DNA of 32,000 bases from an uncultured Moellerella sp. (GCA_963519845.1 CAUQNX010000019.1:22025-54024); one strand, 5' to 3'; counted from the first letter of the stretch, positions 5,457 to 29,796 are shown. Notes: a model not told the origin generated them from the sequence alone. Program-made: numbers and translations.

Positions 5457-5460
5457 CACC

Positions 5461-8668: not shown

Positions 8669-9724
8669 TTAGGCTACAAAAACATCGCCGGATAGCAGCT
8701 TTCTTGCCGTTCTGATAATTGAAGCTTGTAATCCTTCAGGCGAATCACCTTGCTGCTTTAATAACACATCAAATGTACCACTCAGGTGTTCAATCACAAT
8801 AGACTCTAAATCACTGCTTGTTTGCGTTATTTGCTGAACGACGCTGCCCGATAAAATTAGGCTCGTTGCAATCGCAATCGCTCCTGTTACTGCCAAAGCA
8901 CCGTGACAACGTTGTGGCATAAAATAACGAACGTTCACTGAACCACCATGGATGGGGGGTGAAACCAAAATAGGTTTAGGGATCACTTTATTAGTAACAT
9001 CACCAAAACCCATTTTTTCACCCGCTAAACAACGAATGCGCTCTAATTTTTGCATAAACTCGAGATCTGATTCCAATTGTTGCGCCGTTTCATAACCTGT
9101 TTTACCCAGTTTTTGCGCATCAATTAATACCACTGGTGTCGCCATATCAAGACAAGTGACCTCTATACCCTCAAAGATATCTATTTTATTTCCGGTCGGT
9201 AATAATTTCCCCGTTTTAGCACCACAAGCATTTAAAAAAGTCAGCGCAATGGGAGCAGCATGACCGGGAACACCTGCGATAGCTGTATTTCCTTCATAAG
9301 TGACTTCACCATTTGGCGTTTGTATTTCCGCATTAATAAAAGTATTAGTATTAATATTTCGGATTTTCACCGTCGTGGTATTTCCTGTGACGTTAATTAA
9401 TCCACGCTCTAAAGCATATGGCCCCACAGCACAGAGCATATTGCCACAATTAGGACTGGTATCTAATATTCTCTCTGTAATTGATGCTTGAGCAAATAGA
9501 TAATCGATATCGGCGTCGGGATGAGTTGATTGACTAATAATAGCAACTTTACTGGTTTGTGGACTACCTCCACCAAGGCCATCTATTTGTAATTCATGAC
9601 CTGAGCCCATAATAGATAATATTAAATCGTCACGTTCCTCAATATCTTTGGGTAAGTCATCAGCTAACAGAAAAACGCCTTTTGATGTGCCACCGCGCAT
9701 CAACATACAAGGTATCTTTTTCAT
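8669..9724 (-). CDS. PrpF-family isomerase (2-methylaconitate/aconitate isomerase or oxalomesaconate tautomerase-like)
   Basis: 351 aa. The N-terminus ..MRGGTSKGVF.. , ..QIDGLGGG.PQTSKVAII.. , ..DYLFAQ.. and ..SPNCGNM.. (catalytic Cys context) parallel Shewanella PrpF. Confidence 0.8.
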   Translation of the reverse strand: MKKIPCMLMRGGTSKGVFLLADDLPKDIEERDDLILSIMGSGHELQIDGLGGGSPQTSKVAIISQSTHPDADIDYLFAQASITERILDTSPNCGNMLCAVGPYALERGLINVTGNTTTVKIRNINTNTFINAEIQTPNGEVTYEGNTAIAGVPGHAAPIALTFLNACGAKTGKLLPTGNKIDIFEGIEVTCLDMATPVVLIDAQKLGKTGYETAQQLESDLEFMQKLERIRCLAGEKMGFGDVTNKVIPKPILVSPPIHGGSVNVRYFMPQRCHGALAVTGAIAIATSLILSGSVVQQITQTSSDLESIVIEHLSGTFDVLLKQQGDSPEGLQASIIRTARKLLSGDVFVA

Positions 9725-9858
9725 CTATAGTCCTATTTGATATAATAGAACCTTATATTTTATTTTATATTTAACTATCGATATTGATGGCTATCAAGAT
9801 TAATAACAATAGGAATTAAAATAATAAAAACCATAATAACCTTTATAGTAAAGATATA

Positions 9859-9893
9859 GAAAAGGCGCCTGAATAGGCGCCTATTTTTATTTT
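9859..9893. terminator. Hairpin terminator between the HD-Pnk and PrpF-like genes
   Basis: Self-complementary AGGCGCCT (9863-9870) / AGGCGCCT (9875-9882) with a GAAT loop. It is T-rich on the plus side (ATTTTTATTTT) and has a short TTTC on the minus side, 30 nt downstream of the HD-Pnk stop. Confidence 0.5.
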
Positions 9894-9911
9894 ACTATTT
9901 TATCTTTATTT

Positions 9912-11048
9912 TTATTCTTCTATCTTTAATTTAACCCATTGCCGATTGACATAATAACAGACTCTATGCGCTTCATCGGGAGTAGGCATTTCTAATTTTG
10001 TTTGCATACGCTCAAGTACGCTATTAGGAACTGCATATTCGCGTTGTTTATTTTGTTGTTGCCATTGTTCATAAGGCATTTCCAAATAGATAAGATCGAT
10101 CTCAGCTTGATAACGAACAAATAGGCTGATCATTTTATTTCTTAATGAAGCACCTAGCGAAGTGGCATTCCAAATAAAATCCTGCTTTGCTCTTAAATAG
10201 GTTTTAGCTTGAGAAATAGCTTGCTGAACCACCCAACCATTAGCATTTTTATCAGATGGCCTAATATTAAACTCACGCCTTATATTATCGAGACTGACAA
10301 TAGCTTTATCAGGATAGTGCTGTTGAATAAAATGATCTTTCCCCATTCCCGGTAATCCACATAACATAATTACCTGGCTCGTTTCTTGCTCATAAGGTAC
10401 ATAATCAATCGAACTATTCTCATTATGAAAATAATGAAATTGAGCTTGAGGCGAAGCAAAATGACGAGAATGGTGCCAACAATTCTGCTCTTGACAATAG
10501 AGCTTAAATAGCTCAATTCGCGTGAGTAATTCACCTTGATCTTGGCAATGACGCCCCAAAATATCGGCTTTAGCTAACATGGCTAATAGTGGCATATCAA
10601 CACGCAGCGCAGCGGCTAAAACAGCTCTTTGAGGGTCAGGCTTTTCCAAAATCCAAAGGGGTAATCCGTGATAACGAACCAAGGCACTGATTTGCTCACG
10701 TATCATAAAGGGCACATCAAAATGGCGAAATAGCAGCTGGCGCGTAGTAAGTTCACCTTTTTTGGCATGACCAGGCGACACAATACGACCATCAAAATCT
10801 TGACGAGTCGTTGATCGTTTTTCCACATCATGAAATAACGCCGCACTCCAAACAATTTCTTGCTGTTGCTGCGGAAGCTGTTGATATTCAAGCAAACCAC
10901 AAAGTGCATCTAACACCATTTCAGTATGTATCGCCACATCGCCTTCTGCATGATAAATGGGATCTTGCTCGACACCAGACATATCGGCGACAAAACTAAA
11001 CTGTTTTTGCAGCTCTGCCCATGATTTCTGTTTAGTTAACTGCCACAT
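9912..11048 (-). CDS. HD-Pnk type RNA/DNA end-healing enzyme (N-terminal HD phosphoesterase, C-terminal P-loop polynucleotide kinase)
   Basis: 378 aa. The N-terminal half has an HD signature (..IYHAEGDVAIHT.., ..ALFHDVEK.., ..SPGHAKKG..). The C-terminal half has the Walker A LCGLPGMGKDH and looks like a kinase of the AAA_33/T4 Pnk type. It overlaps the upstream ligase gene by 13 nt. Confidence 0.7.
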   Translation of the reverse strand: MWQLTKQKSWAELQKQFSFVADMSGVEQDPIYHAEGDVAIHTEMVLDALCGLLEYQQLPQQQQEIVWSAALFHDVEKRSTTRQDFDGRIVSPGHAKKGELTTRQLLFRHFDVPFMIREQISALVRYHGLPLWILEKPDPQRAVLAAALRVDMPLLAMLAKADILGRHCQDQGELLTRIELFKLYCQEQNCWHHSRHFASPQAQFHYFHNENSSIDYVPYEQETSQVIMLCGLPGMGKDHFIQQHYPDKAIVSLDNIRREFNIRPSDKNANGWVVQQAISQAKTYLRAKQDFIWNATSLGASLRNKMISLFVRYQAEIDLIYLEMPYEQWQQQNKQREYAVPNSVLERMQTKLEMPTPDEAHRVCYYVNRQWVKLKIEE

Positions 11049-11764
11049 ATCTGCCCCCTATTTTGCTGCTGTCGTTCAAAAGCTAATGGTGCGCGCTGCC
11101 AGTTGCGTTTCCAATGCAGATCGGTTTTCACATGGTTTTGGCGAACGTATTTAAAGATATTTTCAGCAAAATCATCGATAGAAAAGCCAGCGCTATTACG
11201 GCTAACAATACCTTCCATCGAACAGAATTTGCCGGTTTTGACATCAGTCGCACCAAAGAGACTATCCTGAGCCGCCGTAGATATTAGTTTTGATTGATAA
11301 TCTTGGGCTGAGATTCGGCAATTTGCCGGTAAAATAATCTCAGGCACCGTAGGAAAATCAAATAACGCTGCGTAGAATTTGACTTCATCCCAACTCAACC
11401 AGTTATTTCCTTGGCGCACAGCAAAAAGATAGAAATAATCTTCAATATACTGATATTCAATTGAGTGGATCGCATACAGATTTTCACCAAATAATTCGAT
11501 ATCAGCCAAGTCATGTTTTATTAATTGCCAGCGCTGGCGGATCTGATTAGTCCATGCAGACACAGTTGGTGCCGCATGAGATCGCGCAAAAACACCATAA
11601 CGACTTAAACAGTTATTTTCGCCATCGAGTTTTTCAGTATGTATCAGATGTTCGATCTGATTAATATGACGCCACCAATCTTGATTAATTCGATCGTCGC
11701 TGGTGGTACCTGGTGAGAACGGATAATGGAATGTTCTACCATATTTTCTTGATTGCATATTCAT
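11036..11764 (-). CDS. ATP-dependent RNA ligase (Rnl2/Rnl5-like covalent nucleotidyltransferase)
   Basis: 242 aa with nucleotidyltransferase motifs in order: I EKLDGEN (lysine nucleophile), III ELFGENLY, IIIa FYLFAV, IV MEGIVSR, V FKYVRQNHVK. Confidence 0.7.
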   Translation of the reverse strand: MNMQSRKYGRTFHYPFSPGTTSDDRINQDWWRHINQIEHLIHTEKLDGENNCLSRYGVFARSHAAPTVSAWTNQIRQRWQLIKHDLADIELFGENLYAIHSIEYQYIEDYFYLFAVRQGNNWLSWDEVKFYAALFDFPTVPEIILPANCRISAQDYQSKLISTAAQDSLFGATDVKTGKFCSMEGIVSRNSAGFSIDDFAENIFKYVRQNHVKTDLHWKRNWQRAPLAFERQQQNRGQICGS

Positions 11765-12000
11765 TATGCTTTTCTCTTAACAAATAAAGTCCGTCGCAAA
11801 TCAGCAGTCTGATTTACCTTTTTAACATTTGTTCAAGTTCAAGAAATGGCATTACATTTTAATTCCGCAAACGGCCTCAGGCTAATGTTCTCTTTGATTA
11901 ATCAACAGAGAGAGAAGTGTGATACTAGCTTATATTGGAGGGATTCTATCAAAGATGAATCTTTAATCAAATGATACTTGTTAGCTTGTTTGTATTAGAT

Positions 12001-12032
12001 AAAAAAATTGGCCTTAATTGATAAGGCCAATT
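12001..12032 (-). terminator. Rho-independent terminator of the CitMHS transporter gene
   Basis: 11-bp stem AATTGGCCTTA (12006-12016) / TAAGGCCAATT (12022-12032) with a 5-nt loop. Read on the minus strand it is followed by a T5 run (plus-strand A-run 12001-12005). It lies 28 nt past the stop at 12060. Confidence 0.7.
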
Positions 12033-12059
12033 CAGTATATTGATTGCTATTAATAGATA

Positions 12060-13373
12060 TTAATACAGGCCTAATAAAGCACCAACGCCTAGAGTAAAGA
12101 AACTAAATAACCAGATCCAACCGAATGAATAACGTAAGTGACGCCCCATATCCGCCCCCGCTAATCCCATTGCCAGCCATGCTGCTGGAGAGAAAGGACT
12201 AACAAAGGTACCCGCGTTATTACCTATTGCCATCGCATAGACCACAGAGGAGGGATCAATACCTGCGGCCGCGGTTATTTGTTGAATTATCGGTAACAGC
12301 GCAAAATAATAAGCATCCGTACTGGTAAAGATATCCATAGGGACACCTAATATACCGACAAAAATATGAACTTTAGATACCCACTCAGTAGGCAAAATCG
12401 CAGTTAAATCCATTGCTATCGATCTTAACATGCCGCCTTCGGACATTATGCCTAAGAAGGCTCCCGCAGCAAGAATAATGGCCACCATACTCAAGGCTTG
12501 CGGCGCATGTCTACCGATAACTTTCATCTGCTCTTTAGGACTAGGAAAGTTAACCATCAATGCCAGTGATAATGCGATCATAAAGACATAAGGTGCCGAT
12601 AACCAACCAAAAGCTAAGGTCACTACTGAGATGATAATCAAACTGCCATTAATCAAAGGTTTCTGTGGTTGATGGATAACGCTATTATCTGCATGATCGC
12701 CTTCGTCTTCTAATAAAGAGTCGAGTTGATAAGGCGTTGTTCCATTGATTGCCGCAGCGGCGATGCGTCGTTTTTCACGTATACCGACCAAAACAGCAAA
12801 GACAGCAGCACCTGCGATACCAGCGATTTGCACTGGGATCAGCGATTGCCACAGAGTTGATGCATCAATACCCGTCACCGCAGAAGCTCGTCCGAGTGGA
12901 CCACCCCAAGGAACCATATTCATCACCCCCATACTTACACTCATTAATAGCAGCATTAGATAGGGACTCATACCTAGTTGGCGGTAGAGAGGTAATAAAG
13001 CGGGAATAATGATAAGAAAAGTCGCGGCCCCAGAGCCATCAAGATGGACAACAGCTGCGATCAATGTAGTCATCACACTAACAATAATCACATTACCACG
13101 AGTCATTTTGACCATAGCTCTGATCATAGGGTCAAATATATGCAAGTCTTTCATTATACTAAAAAAGAGAATTGCAAATAGGAACATAGTAGCGACTTTC
13201 GATACTTTGGTGATCCCACTATCAAAGAATGATGATATTTCCGCTATGCTAAAACCCGCAAATAACGCCCCAATAAAGGGGATACAGGACATTGCAATAA
13301 TAGGGCTCACTTTTCCCATCATCAACAAGGTGACAATAGAGACGATAATTAAAATTCCGATTATTGTTAGCAA
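12060..13373 (-). CDS. CitMHS-family (metal-)citrate:H+ symporter
   Basis: 437 aa polytopic protein colinear with B. subtilis CitM/CitH (..ATMFLFAILFFSIM.D..IFDP.., ..HLDGSGAATFLI.IPALLPLY..LGM.., ..N.VPWGGP..RA..). Confidence 0.85.
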   Translation of the reverse strand: MLTIIGILIIVSIVTLLMMGKVSPIIAMSCIPFIGALFAGFSIAEISSFFDSGITKVSKVATMFLFAILFFSIMKDLHIFDPMIRAMVKMTRGNVIIVSVMTTLIAAVVHLDGSGAATFLIIIPALLPLYRQLGMSPYLMLLLMSVSMGVMNMVPWGGPLGRASAVTGIDASTLWQSLIPVQIAGIAGAAVFAVLVGIREKRRIAAAAINGTTPYQLDSLLEDEGDHADNSVIHQPQKPLINGSLIIISVVTLAFGWLSAPYVFMIALSLALMVNFPSPKEQMKVIGRHAPQALSMVAIILAAGAFLGIMSEGGMLRSIAMDLTAILPTEWVSKVHIFVGILGVPMDIFTSTDAYYFALLPIIQQITAAAGIDPSSVVYAMAIGNNAGTFVSPFSPAAWLAMGLAGADMGRHLRYSFGWIWLFSFFTLGVGALLGLY

Positions 13374-14050
13374 TATAATTCCCTTATTAGTCTATTACTT
13401 TACATTTAGGAATGATCCAATCGCTTATTTTTAATTATCTGTCTTTAGTTTTAAACCTAAAAAAATAAAAGTGATAATTTGAGCGAAATTCCTTTAATGT
13501 TCAGTAATGTTTATGTTTTATTAACAAGCAAATCTAATTATACGATCTGTAAAATGCAGTTGATTTAAAGATCACAAAAACAGCTATTTTATCGTTTATC
13601 ATTTTGCTTTTGATATCTCCTTATATAAATCACACAAATGTTATGCAAGATTTTTTTGTTAGATTTGTCGACTAGACTCAATAACTTGGCAATTAAATAT
13701 CACTATTATTAATCAAATTTCAGTATTACTTGCTATTAAAAACATAAAAATCATTAGCGGCAATTAACTCCATTGCATATTGATTTTTATCATTTTTATA
13801 TAATATATGAGTAATATTAAGGAGCTATTTATTTATCGCAAACCTTAAGTCAAATTTTAACTTGGTTTTATATTCTGCCATTTTAGAATATAAAATATAG
13901 AATAGTGGGAAACACTTTTTTCGCTATCATTTAATACTTATCACTAGAATGGTTGAAATATGTACAAGTCAACATTTTACTACGTAAAATTTCGCTCACT
14001 TACAAAGTGTAATTTCTAAGGATTTAGCCCTGAGATTTACTTATCTTGCG

Positions 14051-17123: not shown

Positions 17124-17814
17124 AATTCATCCGAAGGTAAAATTGTTTGATAATAATTATATCGCCAATTACTTCTATTATCTTATTATCAATATTGAAT
17201 TTTAACCATGATCATCATCACTAAGTAAAATAAAATATTATAAATATTTATTTTGTAATAATTAGATAAATCTGTTACTAACAACGAATAATTATTAGCA
17301 AATGTTTCCATTTACTTACATAAAAATACAGTTAGTATGAAAATCGAGCTTATTTGAATGTGATTTAAATAAATCTCTAATTACGACAAAAATATCATAT
17401 TTGCATATCAAAAAATCAGATTATACTTATAAACTCACTGTTCATTAATTGTGCAATTTAAATGAATAGAGAAAAAACCGTTAAAACTTGACTATATTGA
17501 GATCTGATACTATGGAGTTCGATAAATCTAATCTATTTAAGAGAAAAAACCAATTCAAAAACAAAAGCCTTATATTACAATTAGTTAATATAAATGTTAT
17601 TACTATTTATAATCTAAAAATAATTTTTTCTTTTAAATTGTTTATTCCATATAATTTACTCTATACATTATCTAAATATTTCTCATTGTCAATTCCACGA
17701 AAAACTTAATGAAATCTATTATTATTTTATTTTAAAACATCAATTAATATGTTTTATAAATGAGAATATTCATTTAAAATAAAACTTGGAGTTGTAATTT
17801 CAAATTAAAATAAA

Positions 17815-17842
17815 CAAAAAACAAAAAACAAAAAACAAAAAA
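17815..17842. repeat. Heptanucleotide tandem repeat (CAAAAAA)x4
   Basis: The C residues at 17815, 17822, 17829 and 17836 are each followed by six A. The repeat sits inside a 1.2 kb gene-free AT-rich region. Confidence 0.9.
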
Positions 17843-18171
17843 TAGAGTCAATTAAAAACAATAAATCATTAATTATATAAGTATAGTAAAGCTCCTCTCC
17901 ATTAAAAAAACAGATAAAATAAATATTTGATCTTATATTTTTAACAACCCATATTGAAAATATAAAGTAACGGGAATAAATAATTTACATGTGTAGTTAT
18001 GTCTATCTATCCATTAAAGGAGTAAAATACCATTATAATGTGTTAATGATCACAACATTGTAATTTTACAAAACTTAACTTAAATAAACAATAAAAAAAC
18101 CACTGGTCGGTTTGGGTTTTTCAAATATCAATGCTATACCTCTATTTCAACTTATAATTTTTTGAAAATTT

Positions 18172-18199
18172 CCCTTTAATTAGAATTAGAGGGTTTTTT
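18172..18199 (+). terminator. Orphan intrinsic terminator-like hairpin in an intergenic region
   Basis: CCCTTTAAT (18172-18180) / ATTAGAGGG (18185-18193), a 9-bp stem with one G-U pair and a TAGA loop, followed by T6 (18194-18199). No annotated plus-strand gene lies upstream. Confidence 0.5.
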
Positions 18200-18365
18200 C
18201 ATACTGTTAAGAATACAATTAAAATTAATAACAAGCTAATAAAGTCTGACAATCACACTTACATCAGTATTTTATTTTGCTTATCTAATAATAAATAATT
18301 ATTAACGTCGCTTTGCGCGCTATTTTATATGCTATGATGCGTGGGGGAAGCCAATAGAGAAAAAT

Positions 18366-19905: not shown

Positions 19906-20787
19906 GTGGATATTCGATTACTTCGCGCATTTATTACGTTATCAGAAACCGAAAACTTTCGTGAGGCGGCCGAAAAGCTGTACATCACACAGCCCGCATT
20001 GACTAAACAAATAAAATCACTTGAACAACAACTTAATGTTCAACTCTTTACTCGTAACCAAAAAGGCGCATTACTGTCACCATCCGGTGATGCGCTATTG
20101 ATTCGAGTAAAATCTATTATTGAACAGCATCAATTGCTTATGATGGAAGCCGCGGCCCTCAATCCTCAACAGTTGCTATCACTCAATATTGGTTTTGGTA
20201 TTTCAGCGTTTTCGGATGCATCTCAGCTTGTCACTCTTTTTCAGCAACAACATCCATCTATTGATATTTCCCTTGAAGATATGCCATCGAGCTTGATGAC
20301 CCAACAATTACTGGCTGGCACATTGCAACTTGCTTTTATGCGCATTCCTCAAACAAGCTCACTGACGCATCTCGTTATTAAACAAGAAACTCTGGCTATC
20401 GCTATCAGTGCATCTCGCTATCCTGAGGATTCTTCTCTTATTGAATTAATAGCAACTCAACCGCTATTGATGCTCAGAGATGAAAGAGGCCTTGGATTAA
20501 ATACGATTATTCGTCAATTTTTAGACTTCAATCAGATAGCTAATCACTCTAGTCATCCATCAAATGATATACAGACATTGATCGCCAAAGTAAGCGCAGG
20601 CGCGGGAATCGCTCTTGTACCTGCCAGTACTCGTTTTATTACCAACGATAATGTGAAAATCCTACCGTTAGAGGGTCAGTACAGCCAATGGCCAGTCGGA
20701 TTGGTTTGGAATGGAGAGGTTGCACATAAAGCCACCGAGATGTTTATAAAATTGGCTAAACAATTTTATAATTTAGAGCATCTTTAA
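19906..20787 (+). CDS. LysR-family transcriptional regulator
   Basis: 293 aa with a GTG start. The N-terminal wHTH MDIRLLRAFITLSETENFREAAEKLYITQPALTKQIKSLEQQLNVQLFTR is followed by a LysR substrate-binding-type C-terminal domain. Confidence 0.9.
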   Translation: MDIRLLRAFITLSETENFREAAEKLYITQPALTKQIKSLEQQLNVQLFTRNQKGALLSPSGDALLIRVKSIIEQHQLLMMEAAALNPQQLLSLNIGFGISAFSDASQLVTLFQQQHPSIDISLEDMPSSLMTQQLLAGTLQLAFMRIPQTSSLTHLVIKQETLAIAISASRYPEDSSLIELIATQPLLMLRDERGLGLNTIIRQFLDFNQIANHSSHPSNDIQTLIAKVSAGAGIALVPASTRFITNDNVKILPLEGQYSQWPVGLVWNGEVAHKATEMFIKLAKQFYNLEHL

Positions 20788-20821
20788 AATTGTTCTGTAA
20801 AATTAAAAGCGTCGATAGAAA

Positions 20822-21282
20822 CGGTCATCCGCCGCCACTCCCCGTCAAACGGGGAACAAATGTTGATATTAAAGCCCCCAAACATCATCACTGGTACATA
20901 CCCGTCAATACGGGGAACAAACTTTACAGCCTATATTATAATTATAAAATATCGGTTCATCCCTGTAACGACAGGGAACCACAAATGCGCTAGAGAATAA
21001 CCCTCATCCATTTAGGTCTATCCCCGTAATAACGAAGAATGGTCTTAATTAATCAATGGCACGCTCTCCAAGCACGGTATATCCCCGTGAACACGAGGAA
21101 TAATGCTAAAGATGACACATTTAAGACCAGTGATAACCTCTCCGTAGATACGAGGAACAGAATCAGCTCTAGTTCTATTTGAGCTAGCTCAGCGGTATAT
21201 CCCCGTTAACACGAGGAACTTTTTACTCTAAAGCCACGACACAGAGTGCCACTCGGTATATCCCTGTTAATACGGGGAAATG
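20822..21282 (-). CRISPR. Type I-E-like CRISPR array, 8 divergent repeats and 7 spacers, transcribed on the minus strand
   Basis: 29-nt repeats start at 21254, 21193, 21132, 21075, 21014, 20953, 20892 and 20831 (plus coordinates), with spacings of 61, 61, 57, 61, 61, 61 and 61. The best copies read, on the minus strand, AAGTTCCTCGTGTTAACGGGGATATACCG, compared with the canonical I-E GTGTTCCCCGCGCCAGCGGGGATAAACCG. Spacers are 32 nt, except one of 28 nt (21104-21131). The distal repeat carries a ~9-nt insertion (GCCGCCACT) after CGGTCATCC (20822-20830). Confidence 0.9.
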
Positions 21283-21386
21283 ATAAGATAAACGACTTTC
21301 TTTTCTATAATTGCCATAAATTTTCTCACGCATTCATTCTGCACGGTATGGCATTGATATCCCTATCATGCCGCCAATCAGTTCAG
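21283..21386 (-). promoter_or_regulatory. Putative CRISPR leader
   Basis: A 104-nt AT-rich segment between the cas6e stop (21387) and the first, best-conserved repeat. This is the position of the leader in I-E loci, except that cas1-cas2 are missing. No promoter hexamers could be assigned confidently. Confidence 0.45.
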
Positions 21387-22073
21387 TTACAGACTTTTAA
21401 TTAGCATCAATCCACAGCCAAATGCTTTTGCTCGACCAAATCCTTGCGAGTATTGTGATAAAAATTTATTTGTATCAGTAACAGTTAAAATTCCTTGATA
21501 ATCAATAGTGGAAAATTGGATCAACTGGCCTGATTTTTTCTTGCTGCTATGTTGAGTATAACTCTCTACATCAGGGCGCACATCAAGATAAATCCCCCAT
21601 TGCTCCAATCGCCGTTGATTACATAACCAGTTACGCGCCGCCTCTTTAACTAACAGCTCTTTCTGTTCATCATCGAGCTGGGTCTGGCGTTGCTGATGTT
21701 TAGCATGCATTAAAACATCATGACGTCGCTGCTTACCTTTTGGGTCAGTAATACAGATCGTAGGATTGATCCGCACACTAAAAGCCAGTTTTTGCCCATC
21801 ATAAATTTTGGGTTGAAAACATTTAGATTCAATTTCCCAGCGATTAGAGATCCCATGAGATTGAGGCGCAGTTTCCGACAGCACATACAATAGAGGCGAT
21901 CCTGCAGCGCCGATCTCCTGCCTAAATAAAAACTGACGTCGCGGCTGATCGGTGAAAAGTTGCCAAAGATGTTGATGTACAGAGTAAATACTCTGCTGAA
22001 GTGGATTAAATTCACTATTGGATTCATTTACAGAATCATTGATTGAACGTAAAGTAACTCTAGATAAATACAT
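21387..22073 (-). CDS. cas6e: Cas6e (CasE) crRNA endoribonuclease
   Basis: 228 aa. MYLSRVTL.., ..YSVHQHLWQLF.. (catalytic His context; E. coli MYLSKV..YQLHQGLWHLF) and the C-terminal ..GFGRAKAFGCGLMLI.. (E. coli GIGPAKSMGCGLLSL). Confidence 0.92.
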   Translation of the reverse strand: MYLSRVTLRSINDSVNESNSEFNPLQQSIYSVHQHLWQLFTDQPRRQFLFRQEIGAAGSPLLYVLSETAPQSHGISNRWEIESKCFQPKIYDGQKLAFSVRINPTICITDPKGKQRRHDVLMHAKHQQRQTQLDDEQKELLVKEAARNWLCNQRRLEQWGIYLDVRPDVESYTQHSSKKKSGQLIQFSTIDYQGILTVTDTNKFLSQYSQGFGRAKAFGCGLMLIKSL

Positions 22074-22077
22074 GAAA

Positions 22078-22812
22078 TTAATCCTTCACGGAAAGTTGAT
22101 ATAGAGTGCGAGGTGCAAATTGCCAGCGCAAACGAGAGCGCGGCTCATCCCAAGGCACTGTGGTCAATATATGCCCTCCTATCACTTCAATATCACTCTT
22201 ATTCCCTTCCCAAAAATAGCTGACACTGCGCGATTGTCCCAGCCAATAATGATCAAATTCATCTGAATGAGTCATAGCCGGAAATGACGTATCGAGCGCT
22301 AATTTTAATGTCTTTGTCTCAACCAATTGAGGTAGCATAGGCAGTGCAAGCGGACATGCCTTGCGTCCTAAATAAGGTGCATAGGCAGGTTGGAGCAGCG
22401 CAGATTTTAGTTGCTGTAAATCCAGTGAATTTTGCTCTGTCAATGAGATAGCTATAACCCACAACCCATCCATGCGATAATCACGTGAAGACAAAATCGT
22501 ATTTAACTCACTTTCAGACAACTCACTTTTTCGCGTTAAATGCTCAACTTTCTTACTTGCTGATGGAACTTGCGTCGTATGATAGTCACGCATTAATGAA
22601 CCACCAATAACCTGTTTAACCGCGATGCGTATTCCCTGTTGAAGTTGCATCAAACGTGACTCCTCATCTCGTTTAATACCACAAGCTGCACCTAGCAAAC
22701 CTAAAATAGCCGAGCGTGTTGGATAACTGGATGTCGGCCGACTTTCACCCACGGCCGGTTGCCCCCAACTTGCCATAGGCCCATATAATCGAAAAACTAA
22801 ATATTGCGTCAT
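22078..22812 (-). CDS. cas5e: Cas5e (CasD) Cascade subunit
   Basis: 244 aa. MTQYLVFRLYGPMASWGQPAVGESRPTSSYPTRSAILGLLGAACGIKRDE parallels E. coli CasD MRSYLILRLAGPMQAWGQPTFEGTRPTGRFPTRSGLLGLLGACLGIQRDD. ..PYLGRKACPL.. is also present. Confidence 0.93.
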   Translation of the reverse strand: MTQYLVFRLYGPMASWGQPAVGESRPTSSYPTRSAILGLLGAACGIKRDEESRLMQLQQGIRIAVKQVIGGSLMRDYHTTQVPSASKKVEHLTRKSELSESELNTILSSRDYRMDGLWVIAISLTEQNSLDLQQLKSALLQPAYAPYLGRKACPLALPMLPQLVETKTLKLALDTSFPAMTHSDEFDHYWLGQSRSVSYFWEGNKSDIEVIGGHILTTVPWDEPRSRLRWQFAPRTLYQLSVKD

Positions 22813-22821
22813 TTGCTTTCC

Positions 22822-23859
22822 TTAGCGGCTAATAAAATCAGCTAATTTGGCAAAAGACCCTTCACCTGTCGTCGCATTAAAATGATAACGTTCCTTTGCA
22901 CATGGACCATAAACTTTATCAAAATTTTCCAGCTGTTTTTCTAATGCACATACGGCGGCACTCTCTATATCTTCATCCTCAATCGGCTTTAAAAAAGCCA
23001 CTGAAAGTGAACGTGGTTGATAATCGCCCTTCTCCGCTAACGCATAATTGGCATAAGCGCGAGAAGCAAAACTATTTTGTTTACCTGTCGGCGATATTTT
23101 CACTGCCGCTTCCGCTAAGGCTTGGATTGCTCGGTTTGCTAGGCTTTCATTGTTCCCTAGGTTTTCAATTAATAAGGTTTTATTTATGCAGATATAGCTA
23201 TAGAACAAAGCAGAGGCAAAACCAGACTCGCCAATATGGGCTGAGCCGCTATCCTCTTTTCCATTATTGAGATCATCAATAGCGGTAAAGTAGTCATCCT
23301 CGATCACCACGCTATGTACGCTAATGCTGTGAGCAACCTGACAAGCTGCTTCCACATTAAATCGCGGTGATGATGCCAGCATGCGACCAAACAGCGCGAT
23401 ATCAACGGCGGTCTCTTCATGGGTCAGCAACAACAATTCACTCGCCAATGGTTTACGCTGCTCAGCGGCTAAACGTTTAGCCAGCTCAAAAGTTGCAGCT
23501 CTTTCATTTTGGCTGATATGCACTAGTTGCTCAGTACAAAATGCATCCTTTTTACTGTTTTTACCAAAAACAGCGACAATCTCTTCAGTCCACTCTTTTG
23601 CCTGCTTCTCTTTGACGCCGTCGTCCAGTAATTGGCGATAAATTTCAATTCCTAGTCGCTTGGTGCGTATCCCCATATGACCATCTAAAGCAGATTGAAA
23701 TAGGTCTGATACCCGCCAGTGACGCTTTAGGCTTTGGGAACTAACTCGCAAACGCTCAAAGCCCCCCATTCTCGCGGTTTTTGGTCGCCCTAAATCATCA
23801 CGATTTAAATTAGCGGGTGGATAAGAGGTCAGCAGGTGCAGCTGAATAAACTGGCTCAT
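22822..23859 (-). CDS. cas7e: Cas7e (CasC) Cascade backbone subunit
   Basis: 345 aa. MSQFIQLHLLTSYPPANLNRDDLGRPKTARMGGFERLRVSSQSLKRHWR parallels E. coli CasC [49 protein letters not shown]. Confidence 0.93.
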   Translation of the reverse strand: MSQFIQLHLLTSYPPANLNRDDLGRPKTARMGGFERLRVSSQSLKRHWRVSDLFQSALDGHMGIRTKRLGIEIYRQLLDDGVKEKQAKEWTEEIVAVFGKNSKKDAFCTEQLVHISQNERAATFELAKRLAAEQRKPLASELLLLTHEETAVDIALFGRMLASSPRFNVEAACQVAHSISVHSVVIEDDYFTAIDDLNNGKEDSGSAHIGESGFASALFYSYICINKTLLIENLGNNESLANRAIQALAEAAVKISPTGKQNSFASRAYANYALAEKGDYQPRSLSVAFLKPIEDEDIESAAVCALEKQLENFDKVYGPCAKERYHFNATTGEGSFAKLADFISR

Positions 23860-23871
23860 AATTAATTCCCT

Positions 23872-24444
23872 TTATTTTTTAGAAATAGTCAGCGCGGTGG
23901 TTTGGTAATAATCCATCGCCCATTGAATACTAATGCGCTTTTCTGCTTGTCTTGGCTTATATTGGTAAAATTCTTGGCACCATCCCGTGATATCCTTGAC
24001 TAACGAGAGGACATTGACTTCATAATCAACCAATTGCAGAATACGGCGCAAGCGCTGGACAAATTCATCTGGTGTCTTAACCCGCTGTAATTGAGCGAAA
24101 CGCAATTGGCTCACAATGGGTTTATCCGCCTCTGCAATAGTGCCAGCAGCCGTCGCTAAACTCTCTTTGCCATTCACTTTCACGAAGGCCAATAAATTGG
24201 CAATCATCGCCCACTTGATCAACATCTGAGTATTAGCGAGCTGCTTCTCCTCATCAGGTAACATCATCCAAAGCGTACGGAACCCCTCGGTGAATATCAC
24301 GGCATCTAAGCTAGTACAACGCTTTAACTCCGCTTTATAAGTGGCGGGTGCGGGCATACTTTGGCTATTTTTCAATTCATCCGATGATAGATTTAGACTT
24401 TCCCACCAGCCTAATACGGCATTTTCAATTTGCTTATCCATCAA
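23872..24444 (-). CDS. cse2: Cse2/Cas11e (CasB) small Cascade subunit
   Basis: 190 aa, helical and basic. ..LRFAQLQRVKTPDEFVQRLRRILQL.. resembles the E. coli CasB ..IFQLIRADRTADMVQLRRLL.. region. It sits between cas8e and cas7e and overlaps cas8e by 11 nt. Confidence 0.8.
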   Translation of the reverse strand: MMDKQIENAVLGWWESLNLSSDELKNSQSMPAPATYKAELKRCTSLDAVIFTEGFRTLWMMLPDEEKQLANTQMLIKWAMIANLLAFVKVNGKESLATAAGTIAEADKPIVSQLRFAQLQRVKTPDEFVQRLRRILQLVDYEVNVLSLVKDITGWCQEFYQYKPRQAEKRISIQWAMDYYQTTALTISKK

Positions 24445-26065
24445 TCCCTACCTCAATCTGTGCCAATGAAATCTCATTCTTAGCCATAAATGTTTTAACC
24501 GCGTTATCATTCCATAACCATTTATTCAGTTGGATGCGGGATTTAATTTGATCGGCTAACTGCTTAGGCGCATCATCTTCTGAAAGTGCCTGCTCATCGA
24601 ATAGCTCGAAACAGGCATCCCATAATTGCCATAACCACTCCTTAGCCTGCTCAGAAGATAGACTTGACTCGGGAAAGGAACTGGCAATGATCTCTTGTAC
24701 GGCAGTAAAAAATGCTGGTTCAGTACGCTGATAAAAAGCTAAATCAATAAATGAAAAATCACCTTTAACATCCGCAGGCCGGCTAAACCAAGCTGATTTT
24801 ATATGATCGCGACACAACCTAAGAATCCGACTTGATAAGGTCTGTAGCTCTTTTATTCTGAGAATGATATTTTTCTTTAGCGCTTTATTAACCAAAAATA
24901 GAGGGAAAGAGGCCGAGTACCAGCAGCGCGCTTTCATATTATCCATATCATAACCAAAGGCCCAAATTTGCGGCGGGCTATCCATTTTCTCACCAATAAG
25001 CTCATGTAAAACTTGGCTATAAAACGCCACATTTAGCGCGGTTTTCTGCCCATACTCATCTTCGGAATAGACTAAATAGTCCCATATTTTATAACTCAGT
25101 CCGCCCGGTTGCCCTTTAATGGATAAATGTTCATCATGGGGTTTTTTCGCATCCCAGCGATAAGGCGTCAGTGGGTGATACCATTGACCTGAATAGTTCT
25201 CACCATAATTCTGAGTGCGATAGACTTTGACTGATTGGGCTGTTTCCTTACCCGATAGCTGACATATATCGGGTTGATTTTCGACCTCAAGTCGAATACG
25301 TCTAGGCATAGCCCAATACATAAAAAGTTTATTGACATCACGCGCATAGACTTCACTACCCGATTGCTGGCTCACCCGTGTTTGACCCAACCAAGGGAAA
25401 ACTTTAGGACTATATAAATCAGGTATTTCATTGCCTAAATAGTCGCGAGTCATCACATTGATCCACAACTTTTGCCAGAGGGATTGATCGGGTGAAGTGG
25501 GTTGCAAAATCGTTGTCAGCGGGCCGCCTCCACGTAAACCCACTCTATGCCCTACTCCACCAGCAGGTGCATTGATTTGCAGAGTAAAAAGAGCAATTGC
25601 TGCCATTTCTGGAGAGATTACCTCACTAATACTGCGCTTAATAAAATGGTCAGTATTTTGTTTAATGGTATTTCCACCAGGTGCTTCGATTAATAATCCA
25701 GATATTGGCGTATTTTTCACCCCTTCGAGTGGATCGAGATCCTGCATAAACAGTGGTCCTTCTCCCGTCAAATTAAATGCATGAGCAGCTTGATTAAAAG
25801 CCGTTTGCAGTTGAGTTTGAGAAGGTGGCGATTGATAAAAATTTAGCCACTGTGCTAGATCTTCAGGTGCAAAAACCGTTTGTAACAAACCAATATTAAA
25901 CTGGTAAGCAGCTCCTTGAAAATCCATACGAGGTAGCGCAAAATCAACAACATCAGGGTTTACAATTGCACTTAATGGCAATCTTTGCTCTGTTCCATCA
26001 CGTAACTGAAAATCTAGCCACGCATCTTTAACAAGATTCATTCTCCCTCCGTTTGGATTTTTCAT
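24434..26065 (-). CDS. cas8e: Cas8e (Cse1/CasA) large Cascade subunit
   Basis: 543 aa ORF. The internal MNLVKDAWLDF (ATG at 26041, preceded by GGAGGGAGA) matches the E. coli CasA start MNLLIDNWIPV, so 26041 is the likelier start. ..GHRVGLRGGGPLTTIL.. matches E. coli ..GFKSGLRGGTPVTTFV.. Confidence 0.9.
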   Translation of the reverse strand: MKNPNGGRMNLVKDAWLDFQLRDGTEQRLPLSAIVNPDVVDFALPRMDFQGAAYQFNIGLLQTVFAPEDLAQWLNFYQSPPSQTQLQTAFNQAAHAFNLTGEGPLFMQDLDPLEGVKNTPISGLLIEAPGGNTIKQNTDHFIKRSISEVISPEMAAIALFTLQINAPAGGVGHRVGLRGGGPLTTILQPTSPDQSLWQKLWINVMTRDYLGNEIPDLYSPKVFPWLGQTRVSQQSGSEVYARDVNKLFMYWAMPRRIRLEVENQPDICQLSGKETAQSVKVYRTQNYGENYSGQWYHPLTPYRWDAKKPHDEHLSIKGQPGGLSYKIWDYLVYSEDEYGQKTALNVAFYSQVLHELIGEKMDSPPQIWAFGYDMDNMKARCWYSASFPLFLVNKALKKNIILRIKELQTLSSRILRLCRDHIKSAWFSRPADVKGDFSFIDLAFYQRTEPAFFTAVQEIIASSFPESSLSSEQAKEWLWQLWDACFELFDEQALSEDDAPKQLADQIKSRIQLNKWLWNDNAVKTFMAKNEISLAQIEVGIDG

Positions 26066-27189
26066 AACATCTGTTATGGGGTCACAGCTACAATTTTATT
26101 CGAGCTCTTGAGGCCAAAAATGTCACGATTCCATTTGATAAAAACACGGATTCAAACAATATCAAGTGACCAGAAAAAACTCTGGTAAACAATCCGTTGT
26201 CTATGTGTTTTTTATCGTTGAATAGTTTTCGTGAAGGATTGAATTGACCTTCTCCCACCAAGTTCATCATCTTGGTGAATTATTCTAAAAAGCTAATATC
26301 AGACTTATTTATCTTTGCTGTAGCGCGTTCAAATATTGAAACTCTTTTAGTCTCAATTAATTGGATAAAACCTGTCGTCCTGACACTGCCAACTTCCTGC
26401 TGCACAGTCGGTTTGATCAATAAATCGATCTTTTTGATGTATTCCTACTTTCAGAAAAATCCTGATACACATCATTTTTATAAACAGATTTAATTAATAC
26501 CCGCTCACTAACAACCACATCCATTTCTACGACTCGATGTGATATTTGCAACCCTAATCCAAAACGATCAGGTGAACGATAAACAAGCTGTTCTTCCCAT
26601 TGCGGGGTATGTAGATAAAATATCGAAGCTAATTGTTAATTTTTATAAACTCATTAATTTTATTCATTTATACCACTAAGTTAATTTTGCCCTTAATATC
26701 CACTCAGCGAGCCCCAATGAGGCTTGATATATAAATGTGTATAAATTATAACCTAAAGAATAAATAGAATATCTTATAGTCTATATTTGAATAGGTGATA
26801 TTACTCAACCCTGAATATTTTAGTTAAATCATCTTAAAATTCCTAGATGATTTTATTGATAAATAATTTTCCCCGTTATCTTTTTTCTGGTATTGAAGCT
26901 AGATACATTTGAATAATTCACATATGCAAACCATTTATTTCTTTATATTCAATATGATACAGATAAATAACACTATTCTATCATCATAAAAACGTACAAT
27001 TAATAACCTAAGTGCTTTAATTTTAACCTTCCAGTAAAACATCACATTCAGACTAATCCCATCAATAGAGCCTGCCCCATAAAAATTTATGCCCTTCCTG
27101 CCGTTATATATCTAAGAACTTTAATTTAATAAGTAACCAATCTACTTAGGTAGGAATGACTCCCTTTATGACTTTGCTAGGATGCAGCT

Positions 27190-29796
27190 ATGATCCAGAT
27201 TGACCTTTCAACACTTGTTAGCCGCCTTAATCCACTTGCTAAGCAGGCAATGGAAAATGCCGCTGCACACTGCGTCAATGCGCAGCAACCCGAAATTACC
27301 GCGCCTCTATTTTTACTTCACTTAATCAAAACTCCCTTAAGTGATGCGCATATTATTTGCAGCAAATCCGATATTTCGATACAGGCACTGACTGGCCAGC
27401 TTGATGCCATAGTTCCACCGCACTATGCATCAGGACAAAATACCCCTAGCTTTTCACCTTTATTGGTTGAATGGCTAAAAGATAGTTGGCTGCTTGCATC
27501 GGCTGAAATGCAACATACACAACTGCGATCTGGTACTTTATTACTCGCTTTATTGCAGACGCCTCAGCGTTATTTATCCTACGGCGCAGCAGATTTAATA
27601 TCGCAAATCAACCGCGAGCAGCTTAAGCAGCATTTTAGTGATTGGATATCAGGTTCCGCTGAAATATCAGTGTCAGAGGCAGAAAGTGGTAGCAATATTC
27701 AACAACATGAGCAGCTACTGACAAAATTCACGCAAAATATGACTCAGCAAGCGAAAGCAGGGAAATTAGACCCTGTGCTCTGTCGTGATAAAGAGATCGA
27801 TCTTATGATTGATATTCTTTGCCGCCGCCGTAAAAACAATCCGATAATTGTGGGTGAACCTGGCGTTGGGAAAAGTGCACTTATTGAGGGCCTCGCATTG
27901 CGTATCATAGCCAATGAGGTTCCCGATAAATTAAAACAGAGTGAATTATTGACCTTAGATCTCGGCGCTTTACAAGCAGGTGCGGCAGTAAAAGGGGAAT
28001 TTGAGAAGCGCTTCAAAGGCATTATGCAAGAGATTGAAAAATCTGCCCATCCTATCATTTTATTTATTGATGAAGCCCACACACTTATTGGTGCTGGCAA
28101 TCAGCAGGGCGGATTGGATATTTCAAATTTATTAAAACCAGCACTTGCGCGTGGCGAATTAAAAACAATTGCAGCAACCACATGGAGTGAATATAAAAAG
28201 TATTTTGAAAGAGATGCTGCCCTAGCCCGTCGTTTTCAACTGGTGCATGTCAAGGAGCCCACTGCCGCTGAAGCAACGGTAATAATGCGAGGATTAAGAG
28301 TTATTTATGAATCATCCCACGGTGTTTTTATCGATGATGAAGCCCTATGTGCCTCAGCTGAGTTAAGTGAACGCTACATATCCGGACGTCAATTGCCCGA
28401 TAAAGCGATTGATGTCTTGGATACCGCCTGTGCACGCACTGCAATTAACCTGACTTCACCCCCTAAGCAAGTTGCCGCATTAAAAACTGAATTACATCAG
28501 TTAACTATGGAGATAGAGACTCTAGAGCGTGAGCGACAACTAGGATTCAATGACCATAGTGCGCGTTTAGGTGGGCTTGCTCAACAATCCTCACAACTTC
28601 AGCAGCAATTAGATCAACTGCTTGAGGAGTGGCAGCAGCAAAACGAACTAGTCAAGCAGATGATTGCCTTACGTGCTCAACTACTTGATAATAATTTAGC
28701 CGCAGAGGAGTTACTGCTCGTCAAAGAGAAGTTAGAGACATTAAGCGCTAAACTCAATAGTTTACAAGCCCATACGCGATTAGTTTCTCCTCATGTCGAC
28801 AAATTGCAAATTGCCGCCATCATTGCTGAGTGGACAGGTGTTCCATTAAATCGATTATCTCAAGACGCTCTTTCTATTGTCACTGATTTGCCCTTCCACC
28901 TTGAGCAGAGTATTAAAGGACAAGCATTAGCCATTTCGCACTTGCATAAACATCTATTAACGGCTCGAGCCGATTTACGCCGCCCAGGTCGTCCACTCGG
29001 TGCCTTTCTACTCGCAGGCCCAAGTGGCGTAGGTAAAACTGAAACGGTTATGCAAATTGCACAATTGATGTTTGGTGGTAGTCAATATTTGACCATTATC
29101 AATATGTCAGAATTTCAAGAAAAACACACAGTTTCGCGTTTAATTGGATCACCACCGGGCTATGTGGGATTCGGTGAGGGAGGAGTATTAACAGAAGCTA
29201 TTCGCCAAAAACCTTACTCAGTGGTGCTGCTCGATGAGGTAGAAAAAGCCCATCCTGATGTGCTTAATCTCTTCTATCAAGCTTTTGATAAAGGTGAATT
29301 AGCCGATGGAGAAGGACGTATTATTGATTGTAAAAATATTGCTTTTTTCCTAACTTCCAATTTAGGTGACCAGACTATTGTTGATTACGCGGATAGACCA
29401 GAAGAGTTACAAGAAGCCTTATATCCTGAATTAACAACCTTTTTTAAACCCGCATTACTAGCAAGAATGGAGGTAATTCCTTACCTACCATTGGATCAAG
29501 AGACGCTTAAATCTATCATAGTCGATAAATTGCAACGTTTAGAAAAATTACTTATTCAGCGATTTAATGCCGAAGTTACAATCGAACCTGAGGTTTATAG
29601 TGAAATTTTACTGCGTGCAACTCGCGCAGAAAATGGCGCTCGAATATTGGAATCGATTATAGATGGTGCTTTATTACCTCCCCTATCATTACTCCTACTG
29701 CAACAGAGCGCTAGCGGTAATAAGATCAGCCATATCCACTTAAACGTAAAAGATAATCAATTCAGTGCAAAGGTTGAAACAGACGAAATAGAGTAA
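27190..29796 (+). CDS. tssH: ClpV/TssH-type Clp/Hsp100 double AAA+ ATPase
   Basis: 868 aa with a Clp_N-like N-terminus (..LNPLAKQAMENAAAHCV..). NBD1 has the Walker A GEPGVGKS and Walker B ILFIDEAH. A short coiled-coil middle region follows. NBD2 has the Walker A GPSGVGKT and Walker B VVLLDEVEKAH, and SRLIGSPPGYVGFGEGG is present. An AGGA RBS lies 8 nt upstream. I cannot exclude a ClpB/ClpK-like paralogue without a search. Confidence 0.85.
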   Translation: MIQIDLSTLVSRLNPLAKQAMENAAAHCVNAQQPEITAPLFLLHLIKTPLSDAHIICSKSDISIQALTGQLDAIVPPHYASGQNTPSFSPLLVEWLKDSWLLASAEMQHTQLRSGTLLLALLQTPQRYLSYGAADLISQINREQLKQHFSDWISGSAEISVSEAESGSNIQQHEQLLTKFTQNMTQQAKAGKLDPVLCRDKEIDLMIDILCRRRKNNPIIVGEPGVGKSALIEGLALRIIANEVPDKLKQSELLTLDLGALQAGAAVKGEFEKRFKGIMQEIEKSAHPIILFIDEAHTLIGAGNQQGGLDISNLLKPALARGELKTIAATTWSEYKKYFERDAALARRFQLVHVKEPTAAEATVIMRGLRVIYESSHGVFIDDEALCASAELSERYISGRQLPDKAIDVLDTACARTAINLTSPPKQVAALKTELHQLTMEIETLERERQLGFNDHSARLGGLAQQSSQLQQQLDQLLEEWQQQNELVKQMIALRAQLLDNNLAAEELLLVKEKLETLSAKLNSLQAHTRLVSPHVDKLQIAAIIAEWTGVPLNRLSQDALSIVTDLPFHLEQSIKGQALAISHLHKHLLTARADLRRPGRPLGAFLLAGPSGVGKTETVMQIAQLMFGGSQYLTIINMSEFQEKHTVSRLIGSPPGYVGFGEGGVLTEAIRQKPYSVVLLDEVEKAHPDVLNLFYQAFDKGELADGEGRIIDCKNIAFFLTSNLGDQTIVDYADRPEELQEALYPELTTFFKPALLARMEVIPYLPLDQETLKSIIVDKLQRLEKLLIQRFNAEVTIEPEVYSEILLRATRAENGARILESIIDGALLPPLSLLLLQQSASGNKISHIHLNVKDNQFSAKVETDEIE

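Follow-up and report, generated by a model that had tools for sequence, protein, structure and literature searches.

Gene content of the locus

We analysed a 32-kb stretch of chromosomal DNA from an uncultured Moellerella sp. (Morganellaceae; GCA_963519845.1, CAUQNX010000019.1:22025-54024), hereafter the window, which harbours a CRISPR locus of type I-E reduced to its Cascade genes and an array. Five tightly packed open reading frames (ORFs) on the minus strand code for Cas8e, Cse2, Cas7, Cas5 and Cas6e, in canonical type I-E order (Table 1). From cas8e to cas6e, the first two genes overlap by 11 nt and the next ones are separated by gaps of 12, 9 and 4 nt. Both signature subunits of type I-E, Cas8e and Cse2, are present, and the order of Cas7e, Cas5e and Cas6e is as in that type. 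The three proteins that were run against NCBIfam type I-E equivalog models (Cas8e, Cse2 and Cas5e) all passed the cut-offs, with Cas8e scoring 407.9 bits against TIGR02547, for a cut-off of 70. Cas8e is 62-63% identical to its Xenorhabdus counterparts, and Cas7e 71-75% identical to Xenorhabdus Cas7.

The cas8e ORF reaches back to an upstream ATG at 26065, for a length of 543 aa. The true start is probably Met9, at 26041, because the alignment to Escherichia coli CasA begins at residue 9; the NCBI annotation and the gene caller agree with this start. For cse2, the first ORF call gave 24444..23872. Cas5e matched Cas5 families alone in Pfam, NCBIfam and PADLOC, and it has no HNH insertion. Alignment of Cas6e to E. 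coli CasE (PDB 4qyz_K) showed that the catalytic His and the C-terminal glycine-rich loop are kept, the IYSVHQHLW segment aligning with LYQLHQGLW of CasE, whose histidine is His20.

An AT-rich leader follows cas6e, in the slot occupied by cas1-cas2 in canonical loci, and precedes an array of eight diverged 29-nt repeats and seven spacers with a period of 61 nt. Six spacers are 32 nt long and the third has 28 nt. Thus, the repeat 3/spacer 3 unit (21160-21104) measures 57 nt rather than 61, and the register moves by 4 nt after repeat 3. That repeat also has one mismatched stem pair and a degenerate, unrecognizable 5'-handle segment, so the CRISPR RNA (crRNA) of spacer 3 is probably defective. 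Repeat 8 lacks one base of the loop, and its 3' end is degenerate. The repeat copies share 63-96% identity with the reference copy. With a covariance model derived from them, exactly these eight copies were found in the window, and no credible solitary or mini-array repeat elsewhere, including the 1.1-kb region upstream of cas8e. We looked for a terminator-like site in the leader with a promoter and terminator scan and found none, so read-through from the cas operon is possible; the scan scored no better than with shuffled sequences.

An earlier reading of the DNA without database searches, hereafter the original prediction, had reported five intact, closely packed Cascade ORFs, a catalytic His context in Cas6e, a first repeat 104 nt after the cas6e stop, and an array with seven spacers. 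All of these features were borne out by the family matches, alignments and repeat model described above. It had also found no ORF for Cas3, Cas1 or Cas2 in the 32 kb, which tblastn and Pfam scans confirmed.

Table 1. Features of the Moellerella Cascade locus and its upstream region. Positions are counted from the first nucleotide of the window.
Feature	Position	Strand	Length	Matches and remarks
cas8e (cse1/casA)	24434..26041	-	535 aa, from Met at 26041	Pfam CRISPR_Cse1 PF09481, 3.6e-100
cse2 (cas11e/casB)	23872..24441	-	189 aa	Pfam CRISPR_Cse2 PF09485, 3.3e-17; TIGR02548, 114.7 bits
cas7e (cse4/casC)	22822..23859	-	345 aa	Pfam Cas_CT1975, 4.9e-100
cas5e (casD)	22078..22812	-	244 aa	Pfam Cas_Cas5d, 9.7e-43; TIGR01868, 166.6 bits
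cas6e (cse3/casE)	21387..22073	-	228 aa	Pfam CRISPR_assoc, 2.1e-47
Leader, AT-rich	21283..21386	-	104 nt	Between the cas6e stop and repeat 1
CRISPR array	20832..21282	-		8 diverged 29-nt repeats, 7 spacers
Repeat R1	21282-21254	-		
Repeat R2	21221-21193	-		
Repeat R3	21160-21132	-		
Repeat R4	21103-21075	-		
Repeat R5	21042-21014	-		
Repeat R6	20981-20953	-		
Repeat R7	20920-20892	-		
Repeat R8	20859-20832	-		
cas3 3' remnant, decayed	26275..26644	-		Same strand as, and collinear with, cas8e
Non-coding region, AT-rich	26042..27189		1.1 kb	Between divergent tssH and cas8e; holds the cas3 remnant; GC 0.32
tssH/clpV	27190-29796	+	868 aa	AAA+; divergent from cas8e; TIGR03345 equivalog, 1120 bits (cut-off 885)

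A cas3 remnant and the loss of cas1-cas2

We collected the 80 best genome loci related to that of Moellerella, 76 of which extend far enough upstream of cas8e to be informative. In all 76, cas3 sequence is found directly upstream of cas8e; the gene is intact in nearly all of them, truncated in two (L043 and L049) and present as a fragment only in one (L075). No intact cas3 gene, coding for the HD nuclease and the SF2 helicase, is present within the 32 kb of the Moellerella window. Searches by tblastn with Xenorhabdus queries revealed no similarity to Cas3, Cas1 or Cas2 at E<=1e-3 in the window, and none of its scanned ORFs of at least 80 aa belongs to a helicase, HD, Cas1 or Cas2 Pfam family. 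For cas1 and cas2 the window holds no trace, since no tblastn match beyond chance was obtained even at E=50.

What is left of cas3 is a decayed fragment of ~60-100 codons upstream of cas8e. With relaxed tblastn settings, five type I-E Cas3 queries (from Xenorhabdus, Photobacterium, Photorhabdus, Proteus and Marinobacter) matched one frame at ~26629-26447, with 29-33% identity to Cas3 residues ~680-757. In the full 32 kb these matches had E-values of 1e-5 to 9e-4, and of 5e-8 to 7e-6 when the search was confined to the intergenic region; the next-best Cas3 match anywhere in the window had E >= 0.07. A profile hidden Markov model built from five Cas3 proteins detected the fragment with an i-E of 1.1e-7 over profile positions 706-759, followed by a faint, non-significant match to an IxTRYS motif that is collinear and frameshifted, at 26334-26275.

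The core of the remnant (26629-26435) corresponds to Cas3 residues ~680-759, i.e. to the segment VYRSPGRLWLGL...ARxLIExVY, which hardly varies among intact Cas3 proteins. The remnant departs from it at about half of the invariant positions and has a deletion of 14 aa. Its distance to cas8e fits that of a collinear cas3 3' end, and because tssH begins ~560 nt upstream of it, ~2 kb encoding the HD and helicase domains are missing. The presence of this remnant in cis indicates that the locus descends from a canonical cas3-cas8e arrangement. Given its ~30% identity, the 14-aa deletion and the faint continuation, the loss of cas3 is old.

The original prediction had described the 1.1 kb upstream of cas8e as containing no ORF longer than 73 aa. 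This is correct, as 73 aa is the length of the longest ORF in 26066-27189, but the region is not featureless, the cas3 remnant having been overlooked. The promoter of the cas operon is presumably located between positions 26042 and 27189. No Rfam match was found in 20000-27400.

Orthologous loci and selection on the Cascade genes

A close Cas7 variant led us to six orthologous loci from other samples (GCA_965119455.1 and five Logan assemblies of sequencing runs) that are ~96.3-96.6% identical to the window at the nucleotide level across the region. The Cas3-less layout is conserved among them. Four harbour all of it, namely the HTH, aminotransferase and tssH genes, the 1.1-kb gap, the five cas genes, the array, lysR and the CN-hydrolase gene; the other two, contigs of ~3 kb, break off within the cas operon and fit the same layout.

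We calculated ratios of non-synonymous to synonymous substitution rates (dN/dS) between the window and the four full-length orthologous sequences over the 4.7 kb of cas genes. The five genes have dN/dS values of 0.012-0.087 at dS 0.12-0.20 (cas8e, 0.06-0.09; cse2, 0.06-0.07; cas7e, 0.012; cas5e, 0.03-0.05; cas6e, 0.03-0.05), with ~32 amino-acid changes among 179 substitutions and not a single stop or indel. The flanking genes are in the same regime (tssH, 0.024-0.028; aminotransferase, 0.06-0.10; EamA, 0.05). We also examined the alignment columns that are invariant in 28 Cas3-bearing relatives. Few of them are altered in Moellerella (two in Cas8e, none in Cse2, three in Cas7, four in Cas5 and three in Cas6e), and such counts are no higher than in typical lineages. 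In comparisons with outgroups, identity is only 1-8 points lower for the Moellerella proteins than for those of Xenorhabdus. From these substitution patterns, decay of the Cascade genes since the strains split is rejected. The decay of cas3 is far deeper, which indicates that the nuclease had been lost before the strain split.

The same eight repeats and seven spacers are found in all four orthologous loci that could be aligned across the array. As expected because Cas1-Cas2 are missing, nothing has been acquired since the orthologues diverged. In relatives endowed with cas1-cas2 (X. beddingii, P. hauseri and P. angustum), the repeats are essentially identical. The 6-bp Cas6e hairpin of the Moellerella repeats is paired in 95.8% of cells, compared with 39-51% for slid controls, and double-sided, compensatory changes are found at three pairs; only 2 of 500 shuffles reached the observed pairing or covariation. 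Retention of the hairpin despite the divergence of the repeats argues for continuing selection on crRNA processing.

Between strains, variable sites amount to 3.3-4.8% in the array, 3.6% in nearby non-coding DNA, 1.6% in the dead cas3 fragment and 7-12% at third-codon positions, and the leader shows two or three differences in 103 nt. As the adjacent non-coding DNA is equally conserved, this comparison cannot single out the spacers. Over 1124 nt of the 1.1-kb region, we counted 40 variable sites and not one indel. With the dead cas3 fragment counted in, this region is two to three times less variable between strains than the adjacent third-codon positions, which could reflect promoter or regulatory constraint, or an effect of composition.

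Parallel cases in related bacteria

A second Cascade-only locus was found in Photobacterium sp. SKA34 (L075; NZ_CH724141.1, 7250-13515), with intact cas8e-cse2-cas7-cas5-cas6e ORFs. Its cas3 gene is reduced to a 0.57-kb 3' fragment, still 87% identical at the DNA level to the intact P. angustum gene and, compared with it, disrupted by ~9 stops and three indels, whereas the 4.7 kb of Cascade genes have neither stops nor indels. The cas1 and cas2 genes persist only as fragments. The SKA34 array has five diverged repeats. In the sister strain P. angustum ATCC 25915 (L066), the locus is complete and its array comprises at least 45 identical repeats; the I-E loci of SKA34 and P. angustum have non-homologous flanks. 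The dN/dS values of the SKA34 Cascade are 0.10-0.25 for the four scorable genes, cas8e having been aligned with a gap. As judged from these two loci, the Cascade-only state has arisen independently at least twice, in Moellerella and in Photobacterium SKA34. In both, the retained piece of cas3 starts near the motif YVYRSPGRLW, around residue 700. This suggests that the 3' end of cas3 might be kept since it would carry the Cascade promoter, and such a promoter would explain the conservation of the remnant between Moellerella strains.

The type I-E loci of Photorhabdus (11 loci from 10 species: L014, L023, L024, L026, L028-L031, L033, L035 and L039; about 5080-13600 in each) have kept cas3 and Cascade and are devoid of cas1-cas2. 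In the two loci examined, the array is located just after cas6e, and its repeats are strongly diverged although their hairpins persist. Ten loci were compared over the array region and proved collinear, with ~70-75% identity, versus ~87-89% for cas7 (about 72% and 89%, respectively, across the genus). Thus, the Photorhabdus array looks frozen genus-wide. In P. asymbiotica DSM 15149 (L014, 5087-7792) an in-frame stop interrupts the cas3 reading frame, and this gene may be a pseudogene too.

Among the Xenorhabdus loci, that of X. bovienii T228 (L005) is devoid of cas1-cas2, and the 2 kb downstream of cas6e revealed no array. In X. kozodoii (L012) and X. bakwenae (L013), at ~12480-12820, Cas1 matches cover 57-62 aa only. 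These observations suggest repeated erosion of the adaptation module in this family. In Proteus, two 4-Mb P. mirabilis records filed as plasmids (NZ_OL790811.1, L087, and NZ_OL790812.1) look like chromosomes, given their size and the presence of purF in one of them. A complete canonical I-E locus adjoins purF in NZ_OL790811.1, and likewise in a P. hauseri-type scaffold (L088).

Genomic neighbourhood, spacer targets and candidate partners

Apart from the cas genes and tssH, the scanned ORFs of at least 80 aa in the window are ordinary metabolic, transport or regulatory genes or have no family match. They include a citrate lyase operon, DASS and CitMHS transporters, PrpF, an RNA ligase and kinase pair, EamA, a CN-hydrolase, a LysR regulator, an aminotransferase and an HTH protein. 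The flanks of the locus consist of citrate-metabolism and housekeeping genes that are conserved between strains. The RNA ligase domain protein (242 aa) and the AAA_33 kinase-like protein (378 aa) are encoded by overlapping genes at 9912-11764 on the minus strand, without PADLOC match, and may represent an RNA repair or modification pair. A very AT-rich intergenic segment at 17124-18365 (GC ~0.23) is hypervariable between strains, with ~15% substitutions and many indels, compared with ~3-4% difference in the rest of the region.

The tssH gene stands alone, with no other type VI secretion gene on either side within the window. We considered its product as a partner of Cascade and rejected this idea, since it is an equivalog-level TssH/ClpV and adjoins none of the 80 related I-E loci. 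Its nSTAND Pfam matches are below the gathering thresholds, and its TniB match is a generic AAA match. That tssH and cas8e are neighbours, with the cas3 remnant between them, would fit a side effect of the deletion in which cas3 lost its 5' part.

We searched for HNH, STAND, DinG, nuclease or transposase domains in or next to the Cas proteins, among window ORFs of at least 80 aa and using NCBIfam and PADLOC, and found none. No candidate effector gene linked to the locus and no small toxin candidate were identified in the window. A CreA/CreR-like element in the 1.1-kb region is not supported either, as the repeat covariance model finds no solitary repeat there.

A search of 50,697 phage and 72,556 plasmid records with the complete array as the query (E<=10) turned up nothing but chance matches of 20-25 nt and repeat-to-repeat matches with Proteus and Vibrio arrays. 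We then converted the spacers into 26-nt patterns in which every sixth base is free. The seven patterns had zero matches in IMG/VR, and those of spacers S4 and S7 had zero matches in the JGI metagenomes. Within the window, spacer self-matches and matches to a seed plus a protospacer-adjacent motif (PAM) were at chance level. The search for spacer targets proposed by the original prediction thus returned none from phages, plasmids, IMG/VR or the window. We found no literature specific to natural Cas3-less I-E Cascades or to CRISPR in Moellerella or Photorhabdus.

Proposed function and alternatives

Of the readings considered, the most likely is that the Moellerella locus is a selectively maintained, Cas3-independent Cascade with a fixed set of guides, for which we consider the odds to be about even. 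Since the surviving genes are under strong selection, the complex probably does something that needs no cutting. The ancestor would have been a canonical locus composed of cas3, cas8e-cse2-cas7-cas5-cas6e, cas1-cas2 and an array. Most of cas3 would then have been deleted and its leftover 3' end would have decayed, and cas1-cas2 would have been lost entirely. In the present-day locus, Cas6e would cut the conserved repeat hairpins of the fixed seven-spacer transcript, and the five proteins would assemble on each crRNA to yield crRNA-loaded Cascade. Such a Cas3-less complex would find PAM-flanked matching DNA and form a stable R-loop, with no degradation of the target. The likely activity is thus sequence-specific binding, by which a bound element would be kept from being transcribed or replicated, or a host gene would be regulated. 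The steps from expression and crRNA processing to DNA binding and silencing, as well as which targets are bound, are inferred. Silencing by E. coli Cascade needs Cas3 to be absent, and the mechanism proposed here rests on the behaviour of that complex without Cas3 as a programmable repressor. E. coli Cascade is reported to have been used for programmable gene silencing (PMC4288158).

More broadly, and tentatively, Cascade-only I-E loci could be a recurrent, selectively maintained end state, a domesticated nuclease-free RNA-guided binder acting in the silencing of mobile elements or in host gene regulation. Moellerella and Photobacterium would have reached this state independently, with the 3' end of cas3 possibly kept as a promoter; we find this generalization possible, leaning somewhat against it.

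The original prediction had argued against simple decay and for a retained RNA-guided DNA-binding activity without degradation or adaptation. Its first argument is substantiated by the dN/dS values (0.01-0.09), the integrity of the reading frames, the residues invariant in relatives, nearly all of which are kept, the preserved, covarying hairpins and the Cas3-less layout shared by the orthologous loci. Taken as a whole, its interpretation is partly supported, and the proposed CRISPR interference (CRISPRi)-like function is conjectural, no spacer target having emerged from the collections searched. As for its two other ideas, no candidate for a different effector is linked to the locus, and the analogy with a STAND-linked system of Streptomyces does not apply, because the sole neighbouring P-loop ATPase is a TssH/ClpV equivalog.

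Several observations weigh against a Cas3-independent role. None of the seven spacers has a target in the collections searched. Conservation of the array does not exceed that of adjacent non-coding DNA, the dead cas3 fragment included, and selection on the spacers is thus not demonstrated by this comparison. In Cas8e we saw no change peculiar to the lineage of the kind expected after release from Cas3 binding, and the unchanged state of this protein is equally compatible with Cas3 supplied in trans. Lastly, the lineage is narrow, as Cas8e forms a single 90% cluster of five sequences whose next relative, from Xenorhabdus, is 63% identical.

Interference might continue with a cas3 gene located elsewhere in the genome, in a second I-E locus or on its own, in which case Moellerella Cascade would be an ordinary effector with fixed spacers. 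Purifying selection on all five genes fits an unchanged Cascade-Cas3 partnership, as does the retention of every broadly conserved residue of Cas8e. Nevertheless, the cognate cas3 beside cas8e is dead, and our sample offers no example of such an arrangement: none of the 76 informative loci with an intact Cascade is devoid of cas3 sequence upstream. A Cas3 profile search of 5.8 billion proteins yielded 7098 relatives, and no Moellerella-named Cas3 is found among the best 120 of them, although Moellerella Cas proteins are named in the same database. The two Proteus-like Cas3 matches that we traced belong to complete Proteus-type loci, one of them ~96% identical to that of P. hauseri ATCC 700826, and there is no second Moellerella Cas7 among the 80 best genome loci. 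Exact look-ups with the Cas7 and Cas6e sequences of the window returned no contigs. We therefore regard provision of Cas3 in trans as unlikely. Addiction is rather improbable as well. In haloarchaeal type I-B systems, CreTA elements are RNA toxin-antitoxin modules; here, similarly, a crRNA-like guide would repress a toxic gene with the help of Cascade but not Cas3, making the loss of Cascade lethal and giving rise to purifying selection of no use to the host. This would account for the persistence of the Cascade genes and hairpins while cas3 and cas1-cas2 decayed, and for the same outcome arising twice, and the diverged repeats do resemble degenerate CreA-type repeats. Against it, the covariance model detects no solitary or mini-array repeat in the window outside the eight-repeat array, seed-plus-PAM matches between spacers and nearby promoters in the window do not exceed chance, and no small toxin candidate emerged.

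That the locus is a non-functional relic, in which cas3 was lost, perhaps under selection against autoimmunity, and the rest is decaying slowly, would be in keeping with the short array, the diverged repeats, the degenerate handle, the 28-nt spacer, the missing targets, the narrow lineage and the lower identity of the proteins to outgroups. We find this improbable. The selection tests strongly disfavour slow decay, with low dN/dS over dS 0.12-0.20 and intact frames throughout 4.7 kb, when the adjacent cas3, over a longer period, has decayed to ~30% identity with deletions. The compensatory changes in the hairpin pairs speak against it too, as does SKA34, where stops and indels accumulated in the short cas3 fragment and not in Cascade. 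Finally, Cascade could recruit a different effector, neighbouring or unlinked, for which the divergently encoded 868-aa AAA+ ATPase would be a candidate, since its gene lies 1.1 kb upstream of cas8e in all orthologues that extend to this point. This is highly improbable, because that protein is an equivalog-level TssH/ClpV whose gene is beside none of the 80 related loci, the cas3 remnant sits between tssH and cas8e, and the Cas proteins neither contain nor adjoin a nuclease, HNH, STAND or transposase domain.

If the Moellerella complex indeed works without Cas3, it would be a natural counterpart of engineered CRISPRi, a plain Cascade that has gained nothing visible and is under purifying selection at housekeeping level. 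The cas3 remnant serves as an internal clock, the nuclease gene having decayed when the Cascade genes did not, and the independent case in Photobacterium suggests that the evolutionary route is repeatable.

Comparison with known systems

The Moellerella locus has in common with canonical type I-E systems of the E. coli K-12 type its five subunits and their order, repeats of 29 nt that contain a 6-bp hairpin, an ATAxACCG-type handle and 32-nt spacers, and its nearest sequence relatives are canonical loci of Xenorhabdus, Photorhabdus and Proteus. Of a complete type I-E system, it has Cascade and the array, and the 32 kb lack Cas3 and Cas1-Cas2. Unlike in canonical loci, what remains of cas3 is a decayed fragment, cas1 and cas2 have left no trace, and the array is a frozen one composed of diverged repeats. 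The Photorhabdus loci resemble it in the loss of the adaptation genes, the position of the array directly after cas6e, the diverged repeats with a retained hairpin and the vertical, collinear inheritance of the array. They differ from it by a full-length cas3 beside cas8e, and the ratio of array to cas7 divergence is ~2.5 in Photorhabdus and ~0.8 in Moellerella. The SKA34 locus is an independent Cascade-only I-E locus with intact ORFs, a 3' cas3 fragment and a short, diverged array. It represents a younger event, in which the cas3 fragment is still close in sequence to the intact gene and pieces of cas1 and cas2 can still be seen.

Streptomyces harbours a Cas3-less type I-E derivative with a linked STAND NTPase. 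The Cascade-only I-E gene set is common to both; however, the Moellerella locus has no STAND NTPase, and its neighbour is TssH. The subunits of the Moellerella complex belong to type I-E families, and no Csf or DinG protein is encoded in the window, which distinguishes it from type IV systems. It is not a CRISPR-associated transposon (I-F3, I-B2, I-E5 and similar) either, as no Tns, TniQ or transposase family is found among the window ORFs of at least 80 aa. In type I-E2, Cascade is typically without Cas3 and an HNH nuclease is fused to Cas5 (PMC12669027, PMC11794572), whereas Moellerella Cas5, with 244 aa, consists of the Cas5 domain only and has no HNH.

The most plausible working likeness is with systems that share a logic of binding without degradation, i.e. 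type IV-A, the CRISPR-associated transposons (summarized in PMC12669027) and the engineered, Cas3-deleted E. coli Cascade. The majority of type IV-A systems are described as nuclease-free, inhibition of transcription being their mode of action (PMC12669027). The engineered repressor is artificial, whereas the Moellerella locus is natural and under selection. Nuclease-free CRISPR effectors are known where Cas3 has been replaced, by transposase recruitment, DinG or HNH, or where it has been deleted by engineering. None of the Cas3-less variants compared matches the plain form of the Moellerella locus, with no HNH, no STAND NTPase and no transposon genes. If its complex does act without Cas3, it would offer a tractable case for non-immune or non-degradative work of type I systems.

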